Assembly (NCBI GenBank): GCA_041685075.1
Contig: JAWLGN010000001.1
Coordinates: 1 to 60,476, forward strand
DNA length: 60,476 nt
Direction: 5' to 3'
Origin: Bryobacteraceae bacterium
GTDB taxonomy: Bacteria; Acidobacteriota; Terriglobia; Bryobacterales; Bryobacteraceae
Below are positions 19,379 through 30,212 of the stretch, in pieces. Within the stretch, counting starts at the first letter, position 1; every line of letters begins with the position of its first letter. Under the pieces are notes generated by a model that did no database searches, was not told the DNA's origin, and saw nothing but the letters and a program-made list of their open reading frames with translations. A program made the position numbers and the translations under genes.

Positions 19379-20737
19379 GTGAGTGCAAATCCGCAGGCAG
19401 CCGTAAGGAGCAGGGGACGGATCCTGATCGTCGACGACGAGTTGGTGGTCCGCGATTCGCTGGGCAAGTGGTTCGCCAGCGAGGGCTACCAGGCCATGCC
19501 CGTCGCCGGCGCCCGCGAGGCCCTGGAGGCCATCCAGCAGCTCGAATACGATATTGCCCTGATCGATATCAAGATGCCCGGCATGGATGGGATGGAACTG
19601 CAGAGCCGGCTGCGCGAGGCCGACCCCGACCTCACCGTCATCATCATGACCGGCTACGCCAGCGTGGAGACGGCCGTGCAGGCGCTCAAGCGCGGCGCCT
19701 ACGACTACATCACCAAGCCCGTGGACCCGGACGAGCTGTCGCACCTGGTGGGCAAGGCGCTCGAACACCGCCGCGCCCGCCGCGAGGTGGCCCGGCTGCG
19801 CGAGAACCTGCAGGAGATCTTCCCCTCCACCGAACTCATCGGCAAGAGCGCCGCCATGAAGAAAGTGCAGGAGCTGATCGAGATGGTGGCCCCCACCGAC
19901 GCCACCGTGCTCATCACCGGGGAGAGCGGCACCGGGAAGGAAGTGGTGGCGCGCGCCATTCACGCCGCCAGCCCCCGCCGCTACATGCCCATGGTGACCA
20001 TCCATTGCGGCGCCCTTACGGAAACGCTGCTGGAAAGCGAGTTGTTCGGCCACGAGCGCGGCGCTTTCACCGGCGCGCAGTACCGCAAGAAGGGCAAGTT
20101 CGAGGTGGCCGACGGCGGCACCGTCTTCCTGGACGAGATCAGCGACATCAGCCTGAAGACCCAGAGCGACCTGCTGCGGGTGCTCCAGGAGAAGGAAATC
20201 GTGCGGGTAGGCGGCAACCAGCCCATCAAGGTGGACTTCCGCTGCATCGCGGCCACCAACAAGAACCTGGAGGGGCTGGTGAAGGGCGGCACCTTCCGCC
20301 CGGACCTCTACTACCGGCTGCACGTCTTCTGCATCGACCTGCCGCCGCTGCGCGACCGCCGCGAAGATATCCCGCTGCTGGTGAACCACTTCCTCAACAA
20401 GTTCTGCATGGCCACCAGCCGGCCCATCCCGCAGGTGAGCCAGGACGCCATGGAGCTGCTCATGAGCCACGAGTGGCCCGGCAACGTTCGGGAGCTGGAG
20501 AACGCCGTGGAGCGCGCCCTGGTGGTGGGCCGCGGCCAGGAAATCAAGGCTGCCGATTTCTCGTTCCGCTTCCAGGCCGAACCGATGCCCGCCGGCCGCA
20601 CCCTCAGCGACGTCGAGCGCGCCCACATCGAACGCATCCTGCGGGAGACCGACAACAACCTGTCGAAGGCGGCGCGCATTCTCGACATCGACCGGACCAC
20701 GTTGTATAACAAACTGCGGCGCTACGGTCTGCGGTGA
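19379..20737 (+). CDS. sigma-54-dependent response regulator (NtrC family: REC + AAA+ + Fis-type HTH)
   Basis: REC domain (ILIVDDE...DIKMPGMDG), Walker A GESGTGKE, sigma-54 contact loop ERGAFTGA, C-terminal HTH (NLSKAARILDIDRTTLYNKL). A GTG at 19379 with AAGGAGG 6 nt upstream is the likely start. The track ORF starts at 19361. Confidence 0.9.
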   Translation: MSANPQAAVRSRGRILIVDDELVVRDSLGKWFASEGYQAMPVAGAREALEAIQQLEYDIALIDIKMPGMDGMELQSRLREADPDLTVIIMTGYASVETAVQALKRGAYDYITKPVDPDELSHLVGKALEHRRARREVARLRENLQEIFPSTELIGKSAAMKKVQELIEMVAPTDATVLITGESGTGKEVVARAIHAASPRRYMPMVTIHCGALTETLLESELFGHERGAFTGAQYRKKGKFEVADGGTVFLDEISDISLKTQSDLLRVLQEKEIVRVGGNQPIKVDFRCIAATNKNLEGLVKGGTFRPDLYYRLHVFCIDLPPLRDRREDIPLLVNHFLNKFCMATSRPIPQVSQDAMELLMSHEWPGNVRELENAVERALVVGRGQEIKAADFSFRFQAEPMPAGRTLSDVERAHIERILRETDNNLSKAARILDIDRTTLYNKLRRYGLR

Positions 20738-21303
20738 GGGCCATCCGGCTGGCGACAGTGGGGCCGGCCGGCGGCCACGCCCCTCCGGCGATGGTGGACG
20801 CGCTCGAGCGCGAGCTGCGCCGCATCTTCCGCCTCCCCTGCGAGCGCCACCCAGGTTCAATCGACGTGGAGGCGGCGTGGAACCCCGGACGCGGCCAGTA
20901 CTACTCCACGGAAATTCTCAGCCGGCTGGTCGAAGCCGCCCCCGCCGACGTGCGGATGCTGGGGGTGACCGGGCTGGACCTCTACGTCCCGGTGTTGACC
21001 TTCGTTTTCGGCGAAGCGCAACTGGAGGGCAACTGCGCGCTGGTATCGTTTCACCGCCTGCGCGAGGAGTTCTACGGACTGCCGCCGAACGAGAGGCTGC
21101 TGGCGGAAAGGCTCGTCAAGGAAGCGGTTCACGAACTGGGCCACACCTTCGGGCTGCGCCACTGCGACAACTGGCGCTGCGTGATGGCATCGAGCCACGG
21201 CGTCGAACTGCTGGATGTAAAAGGCGCCGAGTTCTGCCCCGCCTGCGCGCGGGTGGTGAGGGGGGAGGGCGTCGGCCCGCGCGGGGCTTTCCACTCCAAG
21301 TGA
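20734..21303 (+). CDS. archaemetzincin-family zinc metalloprotease
   Basis: Signature HELGHTFGLRHCDNWRCVM...CPAC (HExxHxxGx3Cx4CxM...CxxC). GTGA start/stop overlap with the response regulator gene. Confidence 0.85.
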   Translation: MRAIRLATVGPAGGHAPPAMVDALERELRRIFRLPCERHPGSIDVEAAWNPGRGQYYSTEILSRLVEAAPADVRMLGVTGLDLYVPVLTFVFGEAQLEGNCALVSFHRLREEFYGLPPNERLLAERLVKEAVHELGHTFGLRHCDNWRCVMASSHGVELLDVKGAEFCPACARVVRGEGVGPRGAFHSK

Positions 21304-24536: not shown

Positions 24537-25388
24537 GTGAGGCCGGTGCTTACGCGACCGGCGCTGCTCGTGGCGCTGGCCGCTGCACTCTCCGCCGCGG
24601 CGCCGCGCATTGCGGTGCACGGGCATCGCGGCGCCCGGGCGGTGCTGCCCGAAAATACGCTGCCTGCGTTCGAATACGCCATTCGGGCGGGCGTGGACGC
24701 GGTGGAACTCGACGTGGTCGCCACCCGGGACAACGTCCTGGTGGTATCGCACGACCAGGCCCTCAACCCGTCCATCTGCAAGGCGCCGGGGGGCAGCCGC
24801 CTGATTCGTGAACTCTCGCTCGAGCAGGTGCGGCGATGGGACTGCGGCTCCCTGCGGCATCCGCAGTTTCCAAAGCAGAGGCCCGTACCGGGAGCGCGCA
24901 TTCCCACTCTCGACCAGGTGCTGGCGCTCGCCGGCCAGGGCGATTTCCGGTTCACCATCGAACCGAAGAGCTTTCCCCGGCGGCCGCGGAACGCTCCGCC
25001 GCTGGGCGAGTTCGCGCGCCTGCTGGTGGATGCCGTACGCCGCCGCGGGCTGGAGGCGCGGGTCACGGTGATGTGTTCGGATCTGGCGCTGCTGCGCGCC
25101 GTGAAGCGTCTCGATCCGTCGCTGCGGCTGGCGGCCATCTGCACCCGCTGGCCCAACGAGTTCGTCGAGAAGTGCCGCCAGGCCGGCGCGCAGGTGGTGG
25201 CGCTGAATCAACGGCTCATCACCCCGGAGGTCGTGCGGACCGCCCACGATGCCGGTCTTACGGTCCTCTCCTGGACCAGCAACGAGCCCGCTGAATGGGA
25301 GCGCCTGATCGAAGCCGGGGTGGACGAGATCGGCAGCGACGATCCCGCCGCCCTGATCGACTTCCTCAAGTCTCGCGGGCTGCGTTGA
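24537..25388 (+). CDS. glycerophosphodiester phosphodiesterase (exported)
   Basis: GDPD motifs HGHRGARAVLPENTLPAF and VELDV. Signal-like N-terminus. GTG start directly after the previous stop. Confidence 0.85.
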   Translation: MRPVLTRPALLVALAAALSAAAPRIAVHGHRGARAVLPENTLPAFEYAIRAGVDAVELDVVATRDNVLVVSHDQALNPSICKAPGGSRLIRELSLEQVRRWDCGSLRHPQFPKQRPVPGARIPTLDQVLALAGQGDFRFTIEPKSFPRRPRNAPPLGEFARLLVDAVRRRGLEARVTVMCSDLALLRAVKRLDPSLRLAAICTRWPNEFVEKCRQAGAQVVALNQRLITPEVVRTAHDAGLTVLSWTSNEPAEWERLIEAGVDEIGSDDPAALIDFLKSRGLR

Positions 25389-25390
25389 CG

Positions 25391-28300
25391 TCAGGCCGCG
25401 CTGAGGATCGGCTGCGCGATCAACACGTCGGCCGGATCGATTTGCAGTTCGTCCGGGAAGCCGAGCGGCGGGAATGGCGCGCCGTCCCGCAGTACCCGGA
25501 CTTCCAGCCTCGCCGCCGGGCGCACAGCGCCTAAGGGCGAGTGTAGGGCGCGGGATACTTCCAGAAAGACCATCAACCCCAGGTTGCGCAGGAGTTGCGG
25601 TGCATCGGGAGCATCGAAGAGGCTGGTCAGGCGCTTGTTGAAGGTCTCCACGATGCGGGCACCAAAGCGGTCGAGCGCTTCGATGGCCTGCTCGTCGTTG
25701 CGAGACTGCCGGAAGCGCGCGATGCTAAGGCCGGCGTCGACCGCGCCTTTTATAACTTCAGCCTCCACGAACAACAGGCTGTCGCGCAACAGCATACGAC
25801 CCACGCCGGTGCTGCCCGCGAGCTTGACGTCGCTGAACTCGCCCGGAGAGTAGAAACCGGCGTGCGATTTCAGCCCAGGCGTGTTAGCGAGCAGCTCATG
25901 CGCTTCGTCCATGCGCAGCACGAGAGCGTTGTCGGTGAGGCGGTTGCCGATCATGAGGGTGAGGTCGCCTTCGGGACGCTCGTCGAGGAAGTTCCAGTAG
26001 TAGGACTTTCCGGTGTCGAACCGAACCTGGCCGTTTTCCACCTGCACGGAGTTAGCGGGCGGAAGCGAGCTGTAGAGCATCACCGCGCAAGCGGCCGCGT
26101 TCTGTCCCTTGTACCGATCGAGGTCCTGAAAGTAGACGTACGGCACCAGCCGCCGCAAGGCCTGCTGGATGTTTTTCGAGAGAGCGCGCCAGGCGGGGTC
26201 CTTCGAGTCGGCGGGCGCGTTCCACCATCCGGCCAGCACGCGGCCGGGCATGCTCACGTCGAGCGAGAGCAGGGCGTTCCCGATCAGGCCGGTGCCGTTG
26301 TTTTCCACGGCATCGGCGAGTTTATCCAGGTCCCACACCCACTCCGCCAGGGTTGCCTTCTCATCGCCGAACTCTCCCGGCAGATAGGTCTCGACGATGG
26401 GGCGCAACTGGCGCTCCAGTTGCACCGTGCGCAACGCCTTCCGTGCGATGTGGAAGCTGTAGGATATGGCCATCCCGTCCTCGAGTTCCTCCCGGTCCGC
26501 GAAGCGGTGCACGCCCTGCCGAGCGGCGGCGGGAATGTCCATCATGAGCGCCAGGCGGCCCGCCCAGCGACCCCGGCGGAAGATCTCGTTGGAGCTGTCC
26601 AGGGTGATGCGGCTGCCCTCGGCCCGCACCTCGAACGCGGCCAGCGATTGGGTGATGCTGCCGGTGTCGCTGCGGAAGTAGGGAAGGTTGATCTCCACCG
26701 AGGACCGGCGGGTGATCCCGTGGGTGAGGCGGCCTTCGTGCAGGGTGACGCCGTCGATGGGGCGGGTGAAGAGACCGTCGCTGGCGAAGTCGCCCGCGAT
26801 GGCGTTGCGGAGTACCGGTCCGAGGTCGGGGTTGCGGCCAAAATCGAAACTTACGTCCACCAGCGCCTCCTTGGGCGTGGCGCTCTGGTAGTTGTAGAGG
26901 AAGCTGGCCTCGTAGCGCCGGCTGCCGGCTTCGCGAATGGCTGCGTAAATGTCGTCCGCCTTCGCCAGAACGGCGCGCAAGGCGGCGCGAAGTTCCTCGA
27001 GCGAACTGCGGTCGATCACGCGCCCCAGAAACGCGCTAAGCCGCTCCTTCAGGCGCTTATCGAGTTCGTCGAAATCCGTTTCCAGGATTTGCCGGATACC
27101 GAACCGCTCGACGGCGTAGTCGACCAGCTCATTCAGCACCTTGCCATCCAGGATGTCGAGAGCGTTTTGCGCGGCGCCCCGGATGCGCTCGATATCGGCG
27201 ATGCGATCGATGGCGGCCAGCGCGTTCATGGGGGTTACGGCTTCCAGGAAGCCGCGGGCCGGGCCCGGAACGGCTTCGGCCCTCGCAAGCACGCCTCGGA
27301 TGATGGTCCGGATGGCTTCGGCATCGCCTGCCGCCAGAGCCCGCAGGGTGGGTTCGAGTTCTGCCAGTTCCTCCCGGCGGCCGATCAGGGACCACAGCAG
27401 GGTGGCCGCGCGGTGCCCGAGTTGCGGACTGGTCCATCGGTCGAGAAACTCCAGGATTTTCGCCTGCGCCCTGCCGTAGGCCTCCTGCGGGCTGCTCCGG
27501 AACGTCTCGGCGAACTGCTTCTTGGCCAGTTCGACGAGGAAATCCCCGGCCAGCGTGTTCAGGGGCGTCTGCGGATCGGTCCAGCGGCGGATTTCGCCCA
27601 GGTACTCGACAATCTGCGCCCCGTGAACCCCGAGTATGGCGGATAGGAATTCCTCCATGCTCTCCGGCAGCAGGCCGTCTGTCCTGGGCTCGAGGCCGGC
27701 AGCGGCGTGCAAGGCGAAGTTCCAGCCCTTCTTGGCGAGCTTGTGCAGCCGCAGGCGAACGACCCGGGTATTGGGGTCGAGGGACTCGCGGGAGACCATC
27801 AGGGCGTACTTCCCGGCGGCTTCGAATCCCAGAGTGGCCTCCACGGCGGCCTGGATGCGCAGCCCCAGGACGCCGGAAAGCTCGTTCAGCCGCGTGGCGC
27901 GAACCCAACTGTAGTCCAGCCCCACGGTGGCGCCCAGGCTGGCCTTGAAGCCGCCATCCACCTCGGCCACGATCCAGGTTCCGGCAGGGATATCCGCCGG
28001 GCCGCCAATCCGGGAGGGCAAAGTCCACGCGTCGATCAGGCCCTGCACGCCGTCCCTGGCGTTGGGATCAGTCTCAAAACGCCGGATCGTGATGAACTTG
28101 CCGGCGCTGGATCCCTCCATGCCGAACTTCACGGCCACGTGCCCGAGCGCCAGGGCGCCGGCGGCTGCGCCGTTAACATCATAGTGCCATCGGAGAGCCA
28201 GGTAACGGTCCGTGCCGGAGTCGGGGAAGGCGATGGCGTTGTTGACGATGCCGTCTTCGCTCCCGACATCTTCCACCAGGTCGGCGGAGGTGGAGTACAC

Positions 28301-28567
28301 GCCTAAAGCCCCGCCGCCCTGTGCCGATCCGCGGAACGTTACGGCCTGTCCGTTGAGAGCCGCGAGCTTCAACTCGCCGCCGCCCGCCACGGATGCCGCT
28401 ATCGAGCCCAGCCGGATGGCGCCCGGCGGAAAGGGGCGGTTTTCCACCAGGGCACGCGCGACCTCGAGCGAATCGAGGCCCCGCACCTCCAGCGTGGCGT
28501 CCGCGAGATCCGCCAGCAACTTGCCGTCTTTTCGAAATAGGGGAACTGCAACACCCGGGGTGGCCAT
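25391..28567 (-). CDS. large hypothetical protein (1058 aa), no recognisable domain
   Basis: Balanced protein-like composition over 3.2 kb, unlike the antisense ORFs. The ATG at 28567 is preceded by AGGAGA with a 6-nt spacer. The track ORF starts at 28594. By eye there is no signal peptide, TM helix, canonical Walker A or HExxH. Confidence 0.8.
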   Translation of the reverse strand: MATPGVAVPLFRKDGKLLADLADATLEVRGLDSLEVARALVENRPFPPGAIRLGSIAASVAGGGELKLAALNGQAVTFRGSAQGGGALGVYSTSADLVEDVGSEDGIVNNAIAFPDSGTDRYLALRWHYDVNGAAAGALALGHVAVKFGMEGSSAGKFITIRRFETDPNARDGVQGLIDAWTLPSRIGGPADIPAGTWIVAEVDGGFKASLGATVGLDYSWVRATRLNELSGVLGLRIQAAVEATLGFEAAGKYALMVSRESLDPNTRVVRLRLHKLAKKGWNFALHAAAGLEPRTDGLLPESMEEFLSAILGVHGAQIVEYLGEIRRWTDPQTPLNTLAGDFLVELAKKQFAETFRSSPQEAYGRAQAKILEFLDRWTSPQLGHRAATLLWSLIGRREELAELEPTLRALAAGDAEAIRTIIRGVLARAEAVPGPARGFLEAVTPMNALAAIDRIADIERIRGAAQNALDILDGKVLNELVDYAVERFGIRQILETDFDELDKRLKERLSAFLGRVIDRSSLEELRAALRAVLAKADDIYAAIREAGSRRYEASFLYNYQSATPKEALVDVSFDFGRNPDLGPVLRNAIAGDFASDGLFTRPIDGVTLHEGRLTHGITRRSSVEINLPYFRSDTGSITQSLAAFEVRAEGSRITLDSSNEIFRRGRWAGRLALMMDIPAAARQGVHRFADREELEDGMAISYSFHIARKALRTVQLERQLRPIVETYLPGEFGDEKATLAEWVWDLDKLADAVENNGTGLIGNALLSLDVSMPGRVLAGWWNAPADSKDPAWRALSKNIQQALRRLVPYVYFQDLDRYKGQNAAACAVMLYSSLPPANSVQVENGQVRFDTGKSYYWNFLDERPEGDLTLMIGNRLTDNALVLRMDEAHELLANTPGLKSHAGFYSPGEFSDVKLAGSTGVGRMLLRDSLLFVEAEVIKGAVDAGLSIARFRQSRNDEQAIEALDRFGARIVETFNKRLTSLFDAPDAPQLLRNLGLMVFLEVSRALHSPLGAVRPAARLEVRVLRDGAPFPPLGFPDELQIDPADVLIAQPILSAA

Positions 28568-28612
28568 AAATACTCTCCTGGTAGGAGAGACCATATCCCG
28601 GAGACAGGCAGT

Positions 28613-28638
28613 CCGACAACAGAATTTTCTGTCGTCGG
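28613..28638 (-). other. hairpin between rpoD and the large orphan gene
   Basis: ccgacaacag / ctgtcgtcgg form a 10-position stem with one mismatch and a 6-nt loop (aatttt). No U-tract on either strand. Confidence 0.3.
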
Positions 28639-28685: not shown

Positions 28686-30212
28686 TTACCGCGCCGCCAT
28701 GAGTGCGCGAAGCCGGCGGGCGCGCTCGGGCGCGCGGAGCTGCCGGAGGGCCTTGGCTTCGATCTGCCGGATCCGTTCCCGGGTCACGTCGAACTCCTGG
28801 CCGATCTCCTCGAGCGTGTGCTCGCGCTCGCAGCCGATGCCGAACCGCATCCGGATCACCTTCTCTTCCTTCGGGGAGAGGGTCTTCAGGATGCCGGCGG
28901 TCTCATCCCGCACGTTGGCCTCGATCACCGCATCCACCGGCGACCCCACCCAGCGGTCCTCGATCAGGTCGCCCAGGGCGGACTCGCCGTCGCGGCCCAC
29001 AGGAGTCTCCAGCGACACCGGGTCGCGGGAAATCGTCTTGAGCTTCTGCACTTTTTCGACCGGGATGTCCATCCGGCGGCCGATTTCGTCATTTGTCGGA
29101 GCACGGCCCAGTTCCTTCTCCAGCTCCCTCGATGCACGTAGGAACTTGTTCATGGACTCGTTCATGTGCACGGGGATGCGGATGGTGCGGGACTGGTCTG
29201 CGATGGCGCGGGTGATGGCCTGCCGGATCCACCAGGTGGCGTAGGTCGAAAACTTATAGCCGCGGCGGTATTCAAACTTGTCGGCGGCGCGCATCAGCCC
29301 GATATTGCCCTCCTGGATGAGGTCCAGCAGGTGCAGGCCGCGGTTGACGTACTTCTTGGCCACCGAAACCACCAGCCGGAGGTTGGCTTCCACCAGGTCC
29401 TTCTTGGCGCGCTCGGCTTCCTGCTCGCCGTGGCGGATCACCGTGAGGGTGTGCTTGAGTTCCGTAAGCGACGCCACCGCCGAGGCCTCACGCCGGCGGA
29501 TCTCGCGCTTGAGTTCACGCAGCCGCTGCTGCTGCACGGGCCCCGATCGCGGGTCGATCTTGCGCGCCTCGTTGTCCAGGTGGCTCAACTCCTCCACGGC
29601 ACGCTCGATTTCCCGGGAGAACTCCTTCCATTTCACGGGTTTGAAGGGGATGCGGCGGATCGCCGTGGAGGTCTCGACGCGCGCCCGGTTGAGCTTGCCG
29701 CAAAGCCTCTTGCGGGACCGCTTGTTGGTCAGCGGGGCGGCATCCAGCTTTTCAATGAGCTGTTGCAGCCGGCGGTGGGCGCTCACCGTATCCATGAACA
29801 ACTTCATCAACTCGGCGCGTTTCTTGAAGTCGGCCGGGGTGCCCTCCTCCACGTCGCCGATTTCCACCAGCCCGTCCAGTTCGAGCGCGCCCTTTTTGAG
29901 TTGCTCGGCCAGCTCCACCACCGCCTGCTGAACCAGGGGCGACCGGCTGATGGCCTTCTGCATCCGCAGTTTGCCTCGTTCCATCCGGCGCGCCAGGTCC
30001 ACCTCGCCCTCCCTGGTCAACAAAGGAACGGCGCCCATCTCGCGCAGGTACACTCGAACCGGATCGTCCGTATAGATGGACTCCTCCGCCACTGGGGTGT
30101 GCAGGAAGTCCTCGTGCGCGGCCTCCGGGTCGAAAAACTTGCCCTCTTCCTCGAAACTCAGACCAAGGGATTTGGGAGTGTCGGCAAGGTATTGATCTTC
30201 GAAATGATCCAC
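28686..30212 (-). CDS. rpoD: primary RNA polymerase sigma factor (sigma-70)
   Basis: 508 aa. Region 2 [19 protein letters not shown], region 3 and region 4 ([18 protein letters not shown]). GTG start with a GGGGGAGGTGA SD. Confidence 0.95.

Follow-up and report, generated by a model that had tools for sequence, protein, structure and literature searches.

A large acidobacterial protein family with a long-stranded predicted fold and exchangeable lytic neighbours

We describe a gene, here called X, that encodes a protein of 1058 residues in a 60,476-nucleotide stretch of DNA from a Bryobacteraceae bacterium (contig JAWLGN010000001.1; the whole stretch is referred to below as the window). X is a real, constrained gene, and both its family and its predicted fold are outside every known kind tested (profile libraries, PDB and BFVD). 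In ca. 20% of loci the family has a cassette-like, operonic link to lytic enzymes that carry no leader. From these properties we infer, tentatively, that X may be a membrane-breaching protein, either on its own or by letting the leaderless lytic enzymes reach the envelope.

Acidobacteriota rank with the most abundant bacteria of soils; experimental work has dealt with few of their proteins. The unannotated proteins of the X family, of ~1050 residues, fall into at least 661 clusters when grouped at 50% identity, and their confidently predicted architecture matches neither solved nor viral structures. The association of the family with lytic enzymes provides a concrete, testable hypothesis, namely a possible new bacterial route to membrane permeabilization in programmed lysis, in particle or toxin release, or in antagonism. 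If this is correct, X would extend the repertoire of pore-formers and translocators by a new fold and supply bacterial conflict systems with a new module; even if a membrane role were refuted, the family would stand as a large structural novelty.

A constrained gene in an unannotated family

The original prediction, made from the nucleotide sequence, had called X a coding gene with an ATG preceded by a Shine-Dalgarno (SD) element, and this is borne out by its ratio of non-synonymous to synonymous substitution rates (dN/dS), its G+C content by codon position and its 661 homologue clusters. Compared with an orthologue of 77% identity, dN/dS of X is 0.225, against 0.07–0.12 for metX, metW and the DegT gene and 0.25 for a neighbouring gene for a glycerophosphodiester phosphodiesterase (GDPD). 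The non-synonymous rate of X is 2–3 times that of its housekeeping neighbours, yet the gene is under purifying selection. G+C at the three codon positions (0.69/0.46/0.83) resembles that of the adjacent genes, and codon usage is native. The ATG at 28567 follows an AGGAGAG SD element (28579–28573) at a spacing of 5 nt. An alternative in-frame ATG at 28594, 27 nt upstream, would give a protein of 1067 residues; the start at 28567 is preferred because it agrees with the aligned N-termini of homologues and because its SD element is kept in the 77% orthologue.

The absence of recognizable motifs noted originally was confirmed by the library searches and hydropathy checks. The sequence contains no signal peptide, P-loop or HExxH motif on inspection, and the family-consensus N-terminus in the homologue alignment lacks a hydrophobic stretch. 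The highest hydropathy over 19 residues is only 1.33, and X is thus devoid of transmembrane helices; it has a single Cys residue (C827). Searches of Pfam, NCBIfam and PADLOC with X returned zero families at E <= 1, and PHROGs zero at E <= 0.01. PDB sequences gave no match, whether searched with phmmer or with profiles of the full-length protein and of the N-terminal domain. When 28 aligned family members were scanned at E <= 5, only scattered sub-threshold matches appeared (best E = 0.013). Confident homology to a known housekeeping family, which would have spoken against the membrane-active protein proposed originally, was found in none of Pfam, NCBIfam, PADLOC, PHROGs and PDB.

X had also been termed an orphan, a description that holds for its lack of annotation but not for its lack of relatives. 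In a word-indexed search, 28 full-length relatives came up, and exhaustive phmmer against 1.84 billion representatives found the 661 clusters (50% identity) at E <= 1e-3, with 291 of them at E <= 1e-30. The best 150 of the 661 are nearly all 1000–1090 residues long and align end to end. A profile re-search of a 5.8-billion-protein index with the family alignment yielded nothing new, and those sources that name relatives of X at all label them hypothetical protein. A literature search on Acidobacteria combined with pore-forming, gasdermin, defence or contractile injection found nothing relevant.

The family is distributed almost only among Acidobacteriota. A single-motif scan of GTDB species genomes produced 31 X loci, from Bryobacterales, Vicinamibacterales, Blastocatellia/Pyrinomonadaceae, Thermoanaerobaculia and Granulicella; those outside the phylum are one Longimicrobiales, one metagenome-assembled genome (MAG) labelled 'uncultured bacterium' and one probably mis-binned 'Heliomicrobium' MAG. 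A metagenome scan added 106 contigs. The phyletic pattern is patchy, and the branching of the protein tree departs from taxonomy. A search of 50,697 phage records, 72,556 plasmids and IMG/VR revealed no homologue, and an origin of X on mobile elements was rejected on these grounds.

Predicted architecture and conservation

We modelled full-length X with AlphaFold2 from a 28-sequence alignment, and residues 1–300 separately. The full-length model (mean predicted local distance difference test score (pLDDT) 78.5, predicted template-modelling score 0.75) contains ca. 16 very long β-strands of up to 31 residues, arranged in two blocks that are split by a helical insert (Table 1). Block I starts with a short N-terminal hairpin, which is followed by hairpins whose strands grow from 17 to 21 to 31 residues (residues 51–91, 121–164 and 197–295). 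The amphipathic, β-rich character originally ascribed to the first ~290 residues is thereby recovered as nine strands within residues 10–295, and in 149 full-length homologues the strands of X show a nearly perfect alternation of hydrophobic with polar or Gly residues. The next ~350 residues had been thought helical; a helical block is indeed present, but it covers about 250 residues (300–550), with low model confidence at 313–365 and 490–516. The C-terminal 400 residues, described as mixed, are in fact a β block of long strands (552–773) followed by a helical domain (776–1010). Internal repeats were sought with hhalign between sub-blocks, where the best probability was 12%.

Conservation in the family peaks over 100 residues of β7–β9, above all at the tip of the longest hairpin (211–240). 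Near-invariant residues of these strands are G216, R223, G235, G252, R260, R271 and G281, among which the glycines G216, G235, G252 and G281 sit mid-strand. Beyond β9, 91% of homologues retain the linker residue G313 and 99% retain Q318, and Q318 and E202 are further conserved polar positions. Block II conserves the polar residues D571, D575, H616, R620, R653, S670 and Y703, and the C-terminal part W781, S797, Q801, W858 and E935. Strand order and direction in the model would place E202, R260, R271, D571 and D575 together at a single edge of the sheet. When residues 1–300 were modelled alone, the same nine strands formed, but the tip at 215–242 fell to pLDDT < 50. This loss of pLDDT without the rest of X suggests that other domains hold the tip of the predicted β7–β8 hairpin in the full protein.

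Foldseek comparison of the full model with the PDB gave no match at E <= 1e-3 (best 3.6e-3). The top PDB matches are the barrels SprA, SusC, TbpA, LptD and FadL, with template-modelling (TM) scores, normalized to the query, of at most 0.13; against BFVD there is one match below 1e-3, with a TM score of 0.05. The N-domain model has its best E value, 0.03, with FhuA (TM 0.28), and its best TM scores, 0.28–0.29, with FhuA and SusC. Weaker N-domain matches, all with TM < 0.3, include microsomal triglyceride transfer protein, OmpT, leukocidin and CytK (E = 0.14–0.7, TM 0.08–0.14), and the membrane attack complex (MAC), perforin and perforin-2 (E = 0.17–0.7, TM <= 0.16). For either model, gasdermin is absent among the top 50 listed matches. 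Single-stranded RNA phage maturation proteins and barrel proteins were dismissed as fold relatives of X, at TM < 0.3. The X model seems to resemble the walls of membrane barrels and pore-state toxins in a generic manner, through its long antiparallel hairpins; it shows no family relationship to either.

Exchangeable lytic neighbours

To survey the genomic context of the family, we collected 38, then 123 X loci and collapsed them to 93 independent groups. Clustering of the neighbours in the 38 and then the 123 loci revealed no universal neighbour of X. In a Pfam census of 143 immediate neighbours from the 93 groups, PG_binding_1 (5) and Patatin (5) rank on top, above ubiquitous families, and VanY (3), Tle1-like (2), GDPD (2) and LysM (2) also occur. 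Domain scans near X showed fusions of PG_binding_1 to muramidase, VanY or GH46-like domains, as well as LysM with an M15 peptidase, patatin, and T6SS_Tle1-like/DUF2235. By BLAST, patatin is present in 8 locus groups, peptidoglycan (PG) hydrolases in 8 and Tle1-like/DUF2235 proteins in 3. Up to 2.5 kb from X, 19 of 338 genes encode such lytic enzymes, against 1 of 468 at 2.5–10 kb (odds ratio 28, one-sided Fisher p = 6e-7), a comparison in which distance serves as the control and in which the BLAST seeds were taken from near neighbours, lending the test some bias in its own favour. Each of the 19 belongs to a different group, which gives 19 groups of 93. None of the lytic enzymes near X has a signal-peptide-like N-terminus, whereas the GDPDs have one.

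Several junctions between X and lytic genes are operonic, with an ATGA overlap in locus L092 and gaps of 10–18 nt, with SD elements of their own, in L003, L050 and L028. The partner differs between close orthologues. Among X proteins of 86% identity, L058 and L059 have a Tle1-like gene and L061 has a gene of the metallo-β-lactamase (MBL) fold with patatin; at 68% identity, L021 has a patatin-like gene and L092 and L034 a PG_binding_1 hydrolase. X therefore stays constant while the lytic cassette beside it is swapped.

The same pattern would suit X as a sensor or scaffold of an abortive-infection-type defence, which senses a cue of infection or stress and activates the variable effector encoded beside it (patatin, Tle1-like, PG hydrolase, occasionally TIR or HNH), after the logic of Avs or of cyclic-oligonucleotide-based antiphage signalling systems (CBASS). 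Like CBASS with its patatin CapV, and like defence with TIR or HNH effectors, X combines a constant gene, differing adjacent effectors in close orthologues and a patchy phyletic pattern. Its operonic links to lytic enzymes, the incongruence of its tree with taxonomy and its faster evolution relative to housekeeping neighbours also fit, as do conflict-type genes that occur sporadically in several neighbourhoods: TIR (three groups), PIN toxin–antitoxin pairs, HNH and TPR-S–patatin. However, an obligate pair should always have its effector, whereas four-fifths of the loci have none adjacent. Unlike CBASS-type systems, X contains no cyclase or NTPase, and neither a repeat-sensor nor a nucleotide-cyclase motif is present; PADLOC returned zero matches, TIR genes are not enriched near X relative to far from it, and many contexts of X are plainly housekeeping. 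We consider a sensor or scaffold role unlikely.

Patatin and Tle1-like lipases, both frequent neighbours, could alternatively be read together with GDPD, whose gene adjoins X in the window and is met again within the clade of the window, as the company of a housekeeping envelope protein. The amphipathic sheet would then bind or transfer lipids alongside these enzymes and those that remodel the wall. Native codon usage, synteny of X in a close relative, and weak Foldseek matches to microsomal triglyceride transfer protein and ApoB100 point the same way, although the last are insignificant (E >= 0.1, TM <= 0.19). Leaderless PG hydrolases, however, are unable to remodel the wall from the cytoplasm. 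The GDPDs are of the ordinary GlpQ type with signal peptides and are linked to X within one clade only, and a family with 31 GTDB loci in the single-motif scan, swapped partners and a tree at odds with taxonomy would be unusual for a core function. A lipid-handling role thus seems improbable.

Contractile-tail sheath genes occur near X in 2 of the 93 groups. In L090 (536–7888), a leaderless PG_binding_1/GH46-like hydrolase gene is followed by X and by an open reading frame (ORF) of 135 residues; on the opposite strand, facing X at a distance of 1–1.6 kb, are a tail tube gene (phrog_4542) and a Phage_sheath_1 gene. L090 could be a fragment of a tailocin or contractile injection system (CIS) beside a putative lysis pair. 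The second case, L058 (1–19912), is an island around X with a patatin-like fragment, a TIR gene, two Tle1-like/DUF2235 genes, a sheath-like gene and a gene for a 522-residue protein with a weak match to a phage-tail PHROG.

Such neighbourhoods raise the prospect that X is itself a toxin, carried as cargo of effector islands and exported or injected by a CIS, a type VI secretion system (T6SS) or an unknown route against the membranes of competitors or eukaryotic grazers. The neighbours are of classic leaderless effector types (Tle1-like/DUF2235, patatin, PG_binding_1 with muramidase- or GH46-like domains), the L058 island and the L090 sheath and tube genes lie close to X, and the lack of a signal peptide in X is usual for such cargo. 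T6SS and CIS effector islands, in which a vgrG-type gene is accompanied by swappable Tle, Tae and Tge effectors, likewise consist of a large conserved gene flanked by exchangeable leaderless lytic genes. Unlike the modules of T6SS and extracellular CIS, X has no VgrG, Hcp, PAAR or Rhs domain, no T6SS core genes recur nearby and no immunity genes are evident. VgrG, Hcp and PAAR are absent from the top-25 families listed (>=2 members) in both neighbour censuses, sheath genes are confined to the two groups above, and the architecture of X is uniform rather than polymorphic, in a housekeeping context that is often stable. In the window, an immunity-like gene was sought between rpoD, X and the GDPD gene, where there is no room for one. 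Its absence beside X argues against an antibacterial toxin that requires immunity, and for a self-contained protein that is latent in the cytoplasm. An injected toxin is accordingly a doubtful explanation, with little probability in our estimate.

X as a candidate envelope-breaching protein

PG hydrolases located in the cytoplasm reach the wall only through a breached inner membrane. Combined with X as their constant partner, its amphipathic hairpins and the apparently clamped conserved tip, this makes a latent membrane-permeabilizing X the simplest model. In the cytoplasm X would be held inactive, its helical and C-terminal domains clamping the conserved β7–β8 hairpin. It would then act as a protein pore-former or translocator that breaches or permeabilizes the membrane, by itself in most genomes; at roughly one locus in five, it would also admit the co-encoded signal-less PG hydrolases and phospholipases to the envelope. 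Functionally, this step would be holin- or gasdermin-like, serving either self-lysis (abortive infection, release of particles or toxins) or attack. The sheath and tube genes beside the PG hydrolase and X in L090 support a lysis role because such particles are released by lysis. Also counted in favour of this model are the fast non-synonymous evolution of X under purifying selection, the discordance of its tree with taxonomy, a pair of paralogues of 93% identity on one contig, and the weak structural neighbours, which are walls of membrane barrels and pore-state toxins. We further infer membrane activity, autoinhibition and the direction of the functional link between X and the lytic enzymes. 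A more ambitious version, which we hold to be rather less probable, has X as the core of an unrecognized, Acidobacteriota-wide envelope-breaching system, in which the hairpins of a new fold would serve as pore or translocon and as a gate for exchangeable signal-less hydrolases and phospholipases, analogous to holins or gasdermins and unrelated to either.

Several points, beside the seed bias of the distance test, weigh against a membrane-breaching X. Roughly 80% of the loci, that of the window included, have no lytic enzyme nearby, and their contexts are housekeeping (rpoD, metXW, DegT, MatE and haem biosynthesis genes). X shows no sequence or fold homology to pore-forming, holin or gasdermin families in Pfam, NCBIfam, PADLOC, PDB or Foldseek searches, and the neighbour census contains no protease or other obvious activator conserved near X. 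A soluble sheet packed on helices would be equally expected to alternate in hydrophobicity. Finally, E202, R260, R271, D571, D575, H616 and R620 might belong to a catalytic or ligand site instead. The originally proposed membrane-active N-domain held by a helical region is supported in part: it finds its counterpart in the long predicted hairpins, the helical domains, the loss of pLDDT at the tip and the link to lytic enzymes, but not in any homology or fold match to pore-formers.

Comparison with known pore-formers, holins and barrels

Like X, β-barrel pore-formers (leukocidin/CytK, MACPF/perforin-2) and bacterial gasdermins possess long amphipathic antiparallel hairpins without transmembrane helices. 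A latent soluble form, with helical and C-terminal parts covering the hairpins, would also be plausible for X as for these proteins. Unlike gasdermins, X is 3–4 times larger, with ca. 16 strands in one meander and two helical domains, and the gasdermin N-terminal fold (~240 residues) has no Pfam match in X. Bacterial gasdermins further differ in having an N-terminal Cys of the palmitoylated type and an associated protease, both of which X lacks; with regard to an adjacent activating protease, just 2 of 134 genes that are second neighbours or were selected nearby encode a Peptidase_S8. In contrast to aerolysin/ETX-MTX2 and haemolysin/leukocidin toxins, X has neither similarity to their cap, rim and stem in Pfam, PDB and Foldseek searches nor a secretion signal; in contrast to MACPF/CDC proteins, whose bent central sheet of four strands lies between two helical clusters, it has no MACPF signature, no Pfam MACPF match and no significant Foldseek match to them.

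Holin–endolysin cassettes, including those of type 10 secretion and the lysis modules of tailocins, resemble X loci in that a signal-less PG hydrolase is co-operonic with a second protein that would have to let it cross the inner membrane. X is found beside a signal-less PG hydrolase in 8 of the 93 groups, some of them operonic, the window not being among them. Holins, however, are small proteins of 1–4 transmembrane helices, whereas X has 1058 residues, no such helix and no phage or PHROG relatives. Outer-membrane barrels with plugs (FhuA/SusC, SprA, LptD and FadL) share with X a long meander of antiparallel strands and a helical or globular part, but X is devoid of a signal peptide, a TonB box and the Plug or barrel Pfam signatures, and its TM scores to them are 0.06–0.29. 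X may function in the manner of a pore-former or holin, but by sequence, fold and accessory features it belongs to none of the families compared here.

Features of X and its surroundings in the window

Table 1. Positions of X, its predicted segments and adjoining elements in the window.
Feature	Coordinates	Strand	Basis
X, complete coding sequence, 1058 residues, ~115 kDa	25391-28567	minus	ORF list; stop codon 25391-25393
β block I, residues 10-295, nine antiparallel strands of 8 to 31 residues, lengthening	27683-28540	minus	AlphaFold2 full-length and N-domain models
Most conserved region, residues 181-295 (β7-β9), with GTWIVAEVDG motif	27683-28027	minus	Conservation analyses
Linker, residues 296-330, motif FGxHGAQIV, low-confidence part of model	27578-27682	minus	Alignment, AlphaFold2
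Helical insert, residues 300-550, between β9 and β10	26918-27670	minus	AlphaFold2
β block II, residues 552-773, seven long strands	26249-26914	minus	AlphaFold2, conservation
C-terminal helical domain, residues 776-1010, and two terminal strands, 1018-1056	25394-26242	minus	AlphaFold2
GDPD (glycerophosphodiester phosphodiesterase)	24537-25388	plus	Pfam GDPD E = 1.8e-42; signal-peptide-like N-terminus
7-bp hairpin CTCTCCT-ACC-AGGAGAG, 3' arm = SD element of X	28573-28589	minus	Terminator-like scan; leader RNA fold z = -3.15

As originally stated, X lies directly downstream of rpoD, which occupies 28686–30212 on the minus strand, encodes four Sigma70 Pfam domains and ends 118 nt upstream of X. 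This adjacency is incidental, being common only to the window and the locus of the 77% orthologue (L038). Sigma70 domains occur in 3 of the 143 immediate neighbours; extracytoplasmic function sigma factors are common in Acidobacteria, and this count would match that expectation. An anti-sigma link of X to rpoD was rejected, as the scan of 28 members produced only noise (zf-HC2 and PqqD, E ~0.01).

Gene order in L038, rpoD–X–GDPD–DegT–metW–metX, is that of the window, apart from two genes inserted after X. These are an apiosidase-like gene and a DUF5060 gene between X and GDPD (L038 3392–5143), whereas in the window the convergent GDPD gene is separated from X by a gap of 2 nt (25389–25390). 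The 3' flank of X is therefore a point of insertion or deletion. GDPD occurs within 5 kb of X (<=5 kb) in 4 related locus groups, a recurrence that is limited to the clade of the window, and its status as part of the X feature is uncertain. A search of the window for homologues of patatin, Tle1, PG hydrolases, TIR and sheath proteins found none.

The hairpin that includes the SD element of X (Table 1) is kept in L038 with ca. 10 nt upstream of it, the 3' arm in 5 of 7 bases, and the remaining intergenic DNA has diverged. By sequestering the SD element, this predicted hairpin may exert translational control, or a brake, on X. An 11-bp stem-loop (CCGACGACAG..CTGTTGTCGG) at 28613–28638 on the minus strand, just past the rpoD stop codon, has no U-tract and is not conserved in L038; it may be a terminator or processing site of rpoD.

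Antisense to X, an ORF of 683 residues extends over 25595–27646 on the plus strand. It resembles other long ORFs opposite real genes in the window, and these shadow ORFs are artefacts rather than genes because of the G+C content of 66%.

Additional observations in the family loci

An MBL-fold (Lactamase_B) gene followed by patatin is located directly upstream of X in L028 (3983–9399) and L061 (135–2209); in L028 the pair is preceded by a gene for a subtilase of 970 residues. Downstream of X in L092 (13009–17517), the PG_binding_1 gene is followed by genes for a 355-residue protein, a DUF4432-like protein and an Acyl_transf_3 acyltransferase. Some Acyl_transf_3 members O-acetylate peptidoglycan, which blocks lysozymes, and the L092 acyltransferase might be a self-protection gene.

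Two families without Pfam assignment recur immediately beside X, in 3 and 4 independent groups (L018 8654–9973, L077 1680–2666 and L081 900–1886; L113 48–1103 and L096 4615–5685), and could be further partner enzymes. Comparison of the L018, L113 and L058 neighbour clusters with PDB sequences gave no useful match; one of the two families has a weak PDB match to a chain annotated as SodC.

Contig Ga0306926_10001867 carries two X paralogues of 93% identity, ca. 11 kb apart on the same strand (L046 9842–13036; L051 1127–4087), and the pair looks like a recent duplication. Between them are a 1004-residue gene of the protein-kinase neighbour cluster, with a zinc-ribbon-like N-terminus, and a gene for a 1588-residue protein with a hydrophobic, signal-peptide-like N-terminus.

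Elsewhere in the window, a Peptidase_M54 (archaemetzincin-like) gene is present at 20734–21303 on the plus strand, between a sigma-54 response regulator gene and metX. The name of this peptidase family ties it to archaea, and it may be uncommon in bacteria.

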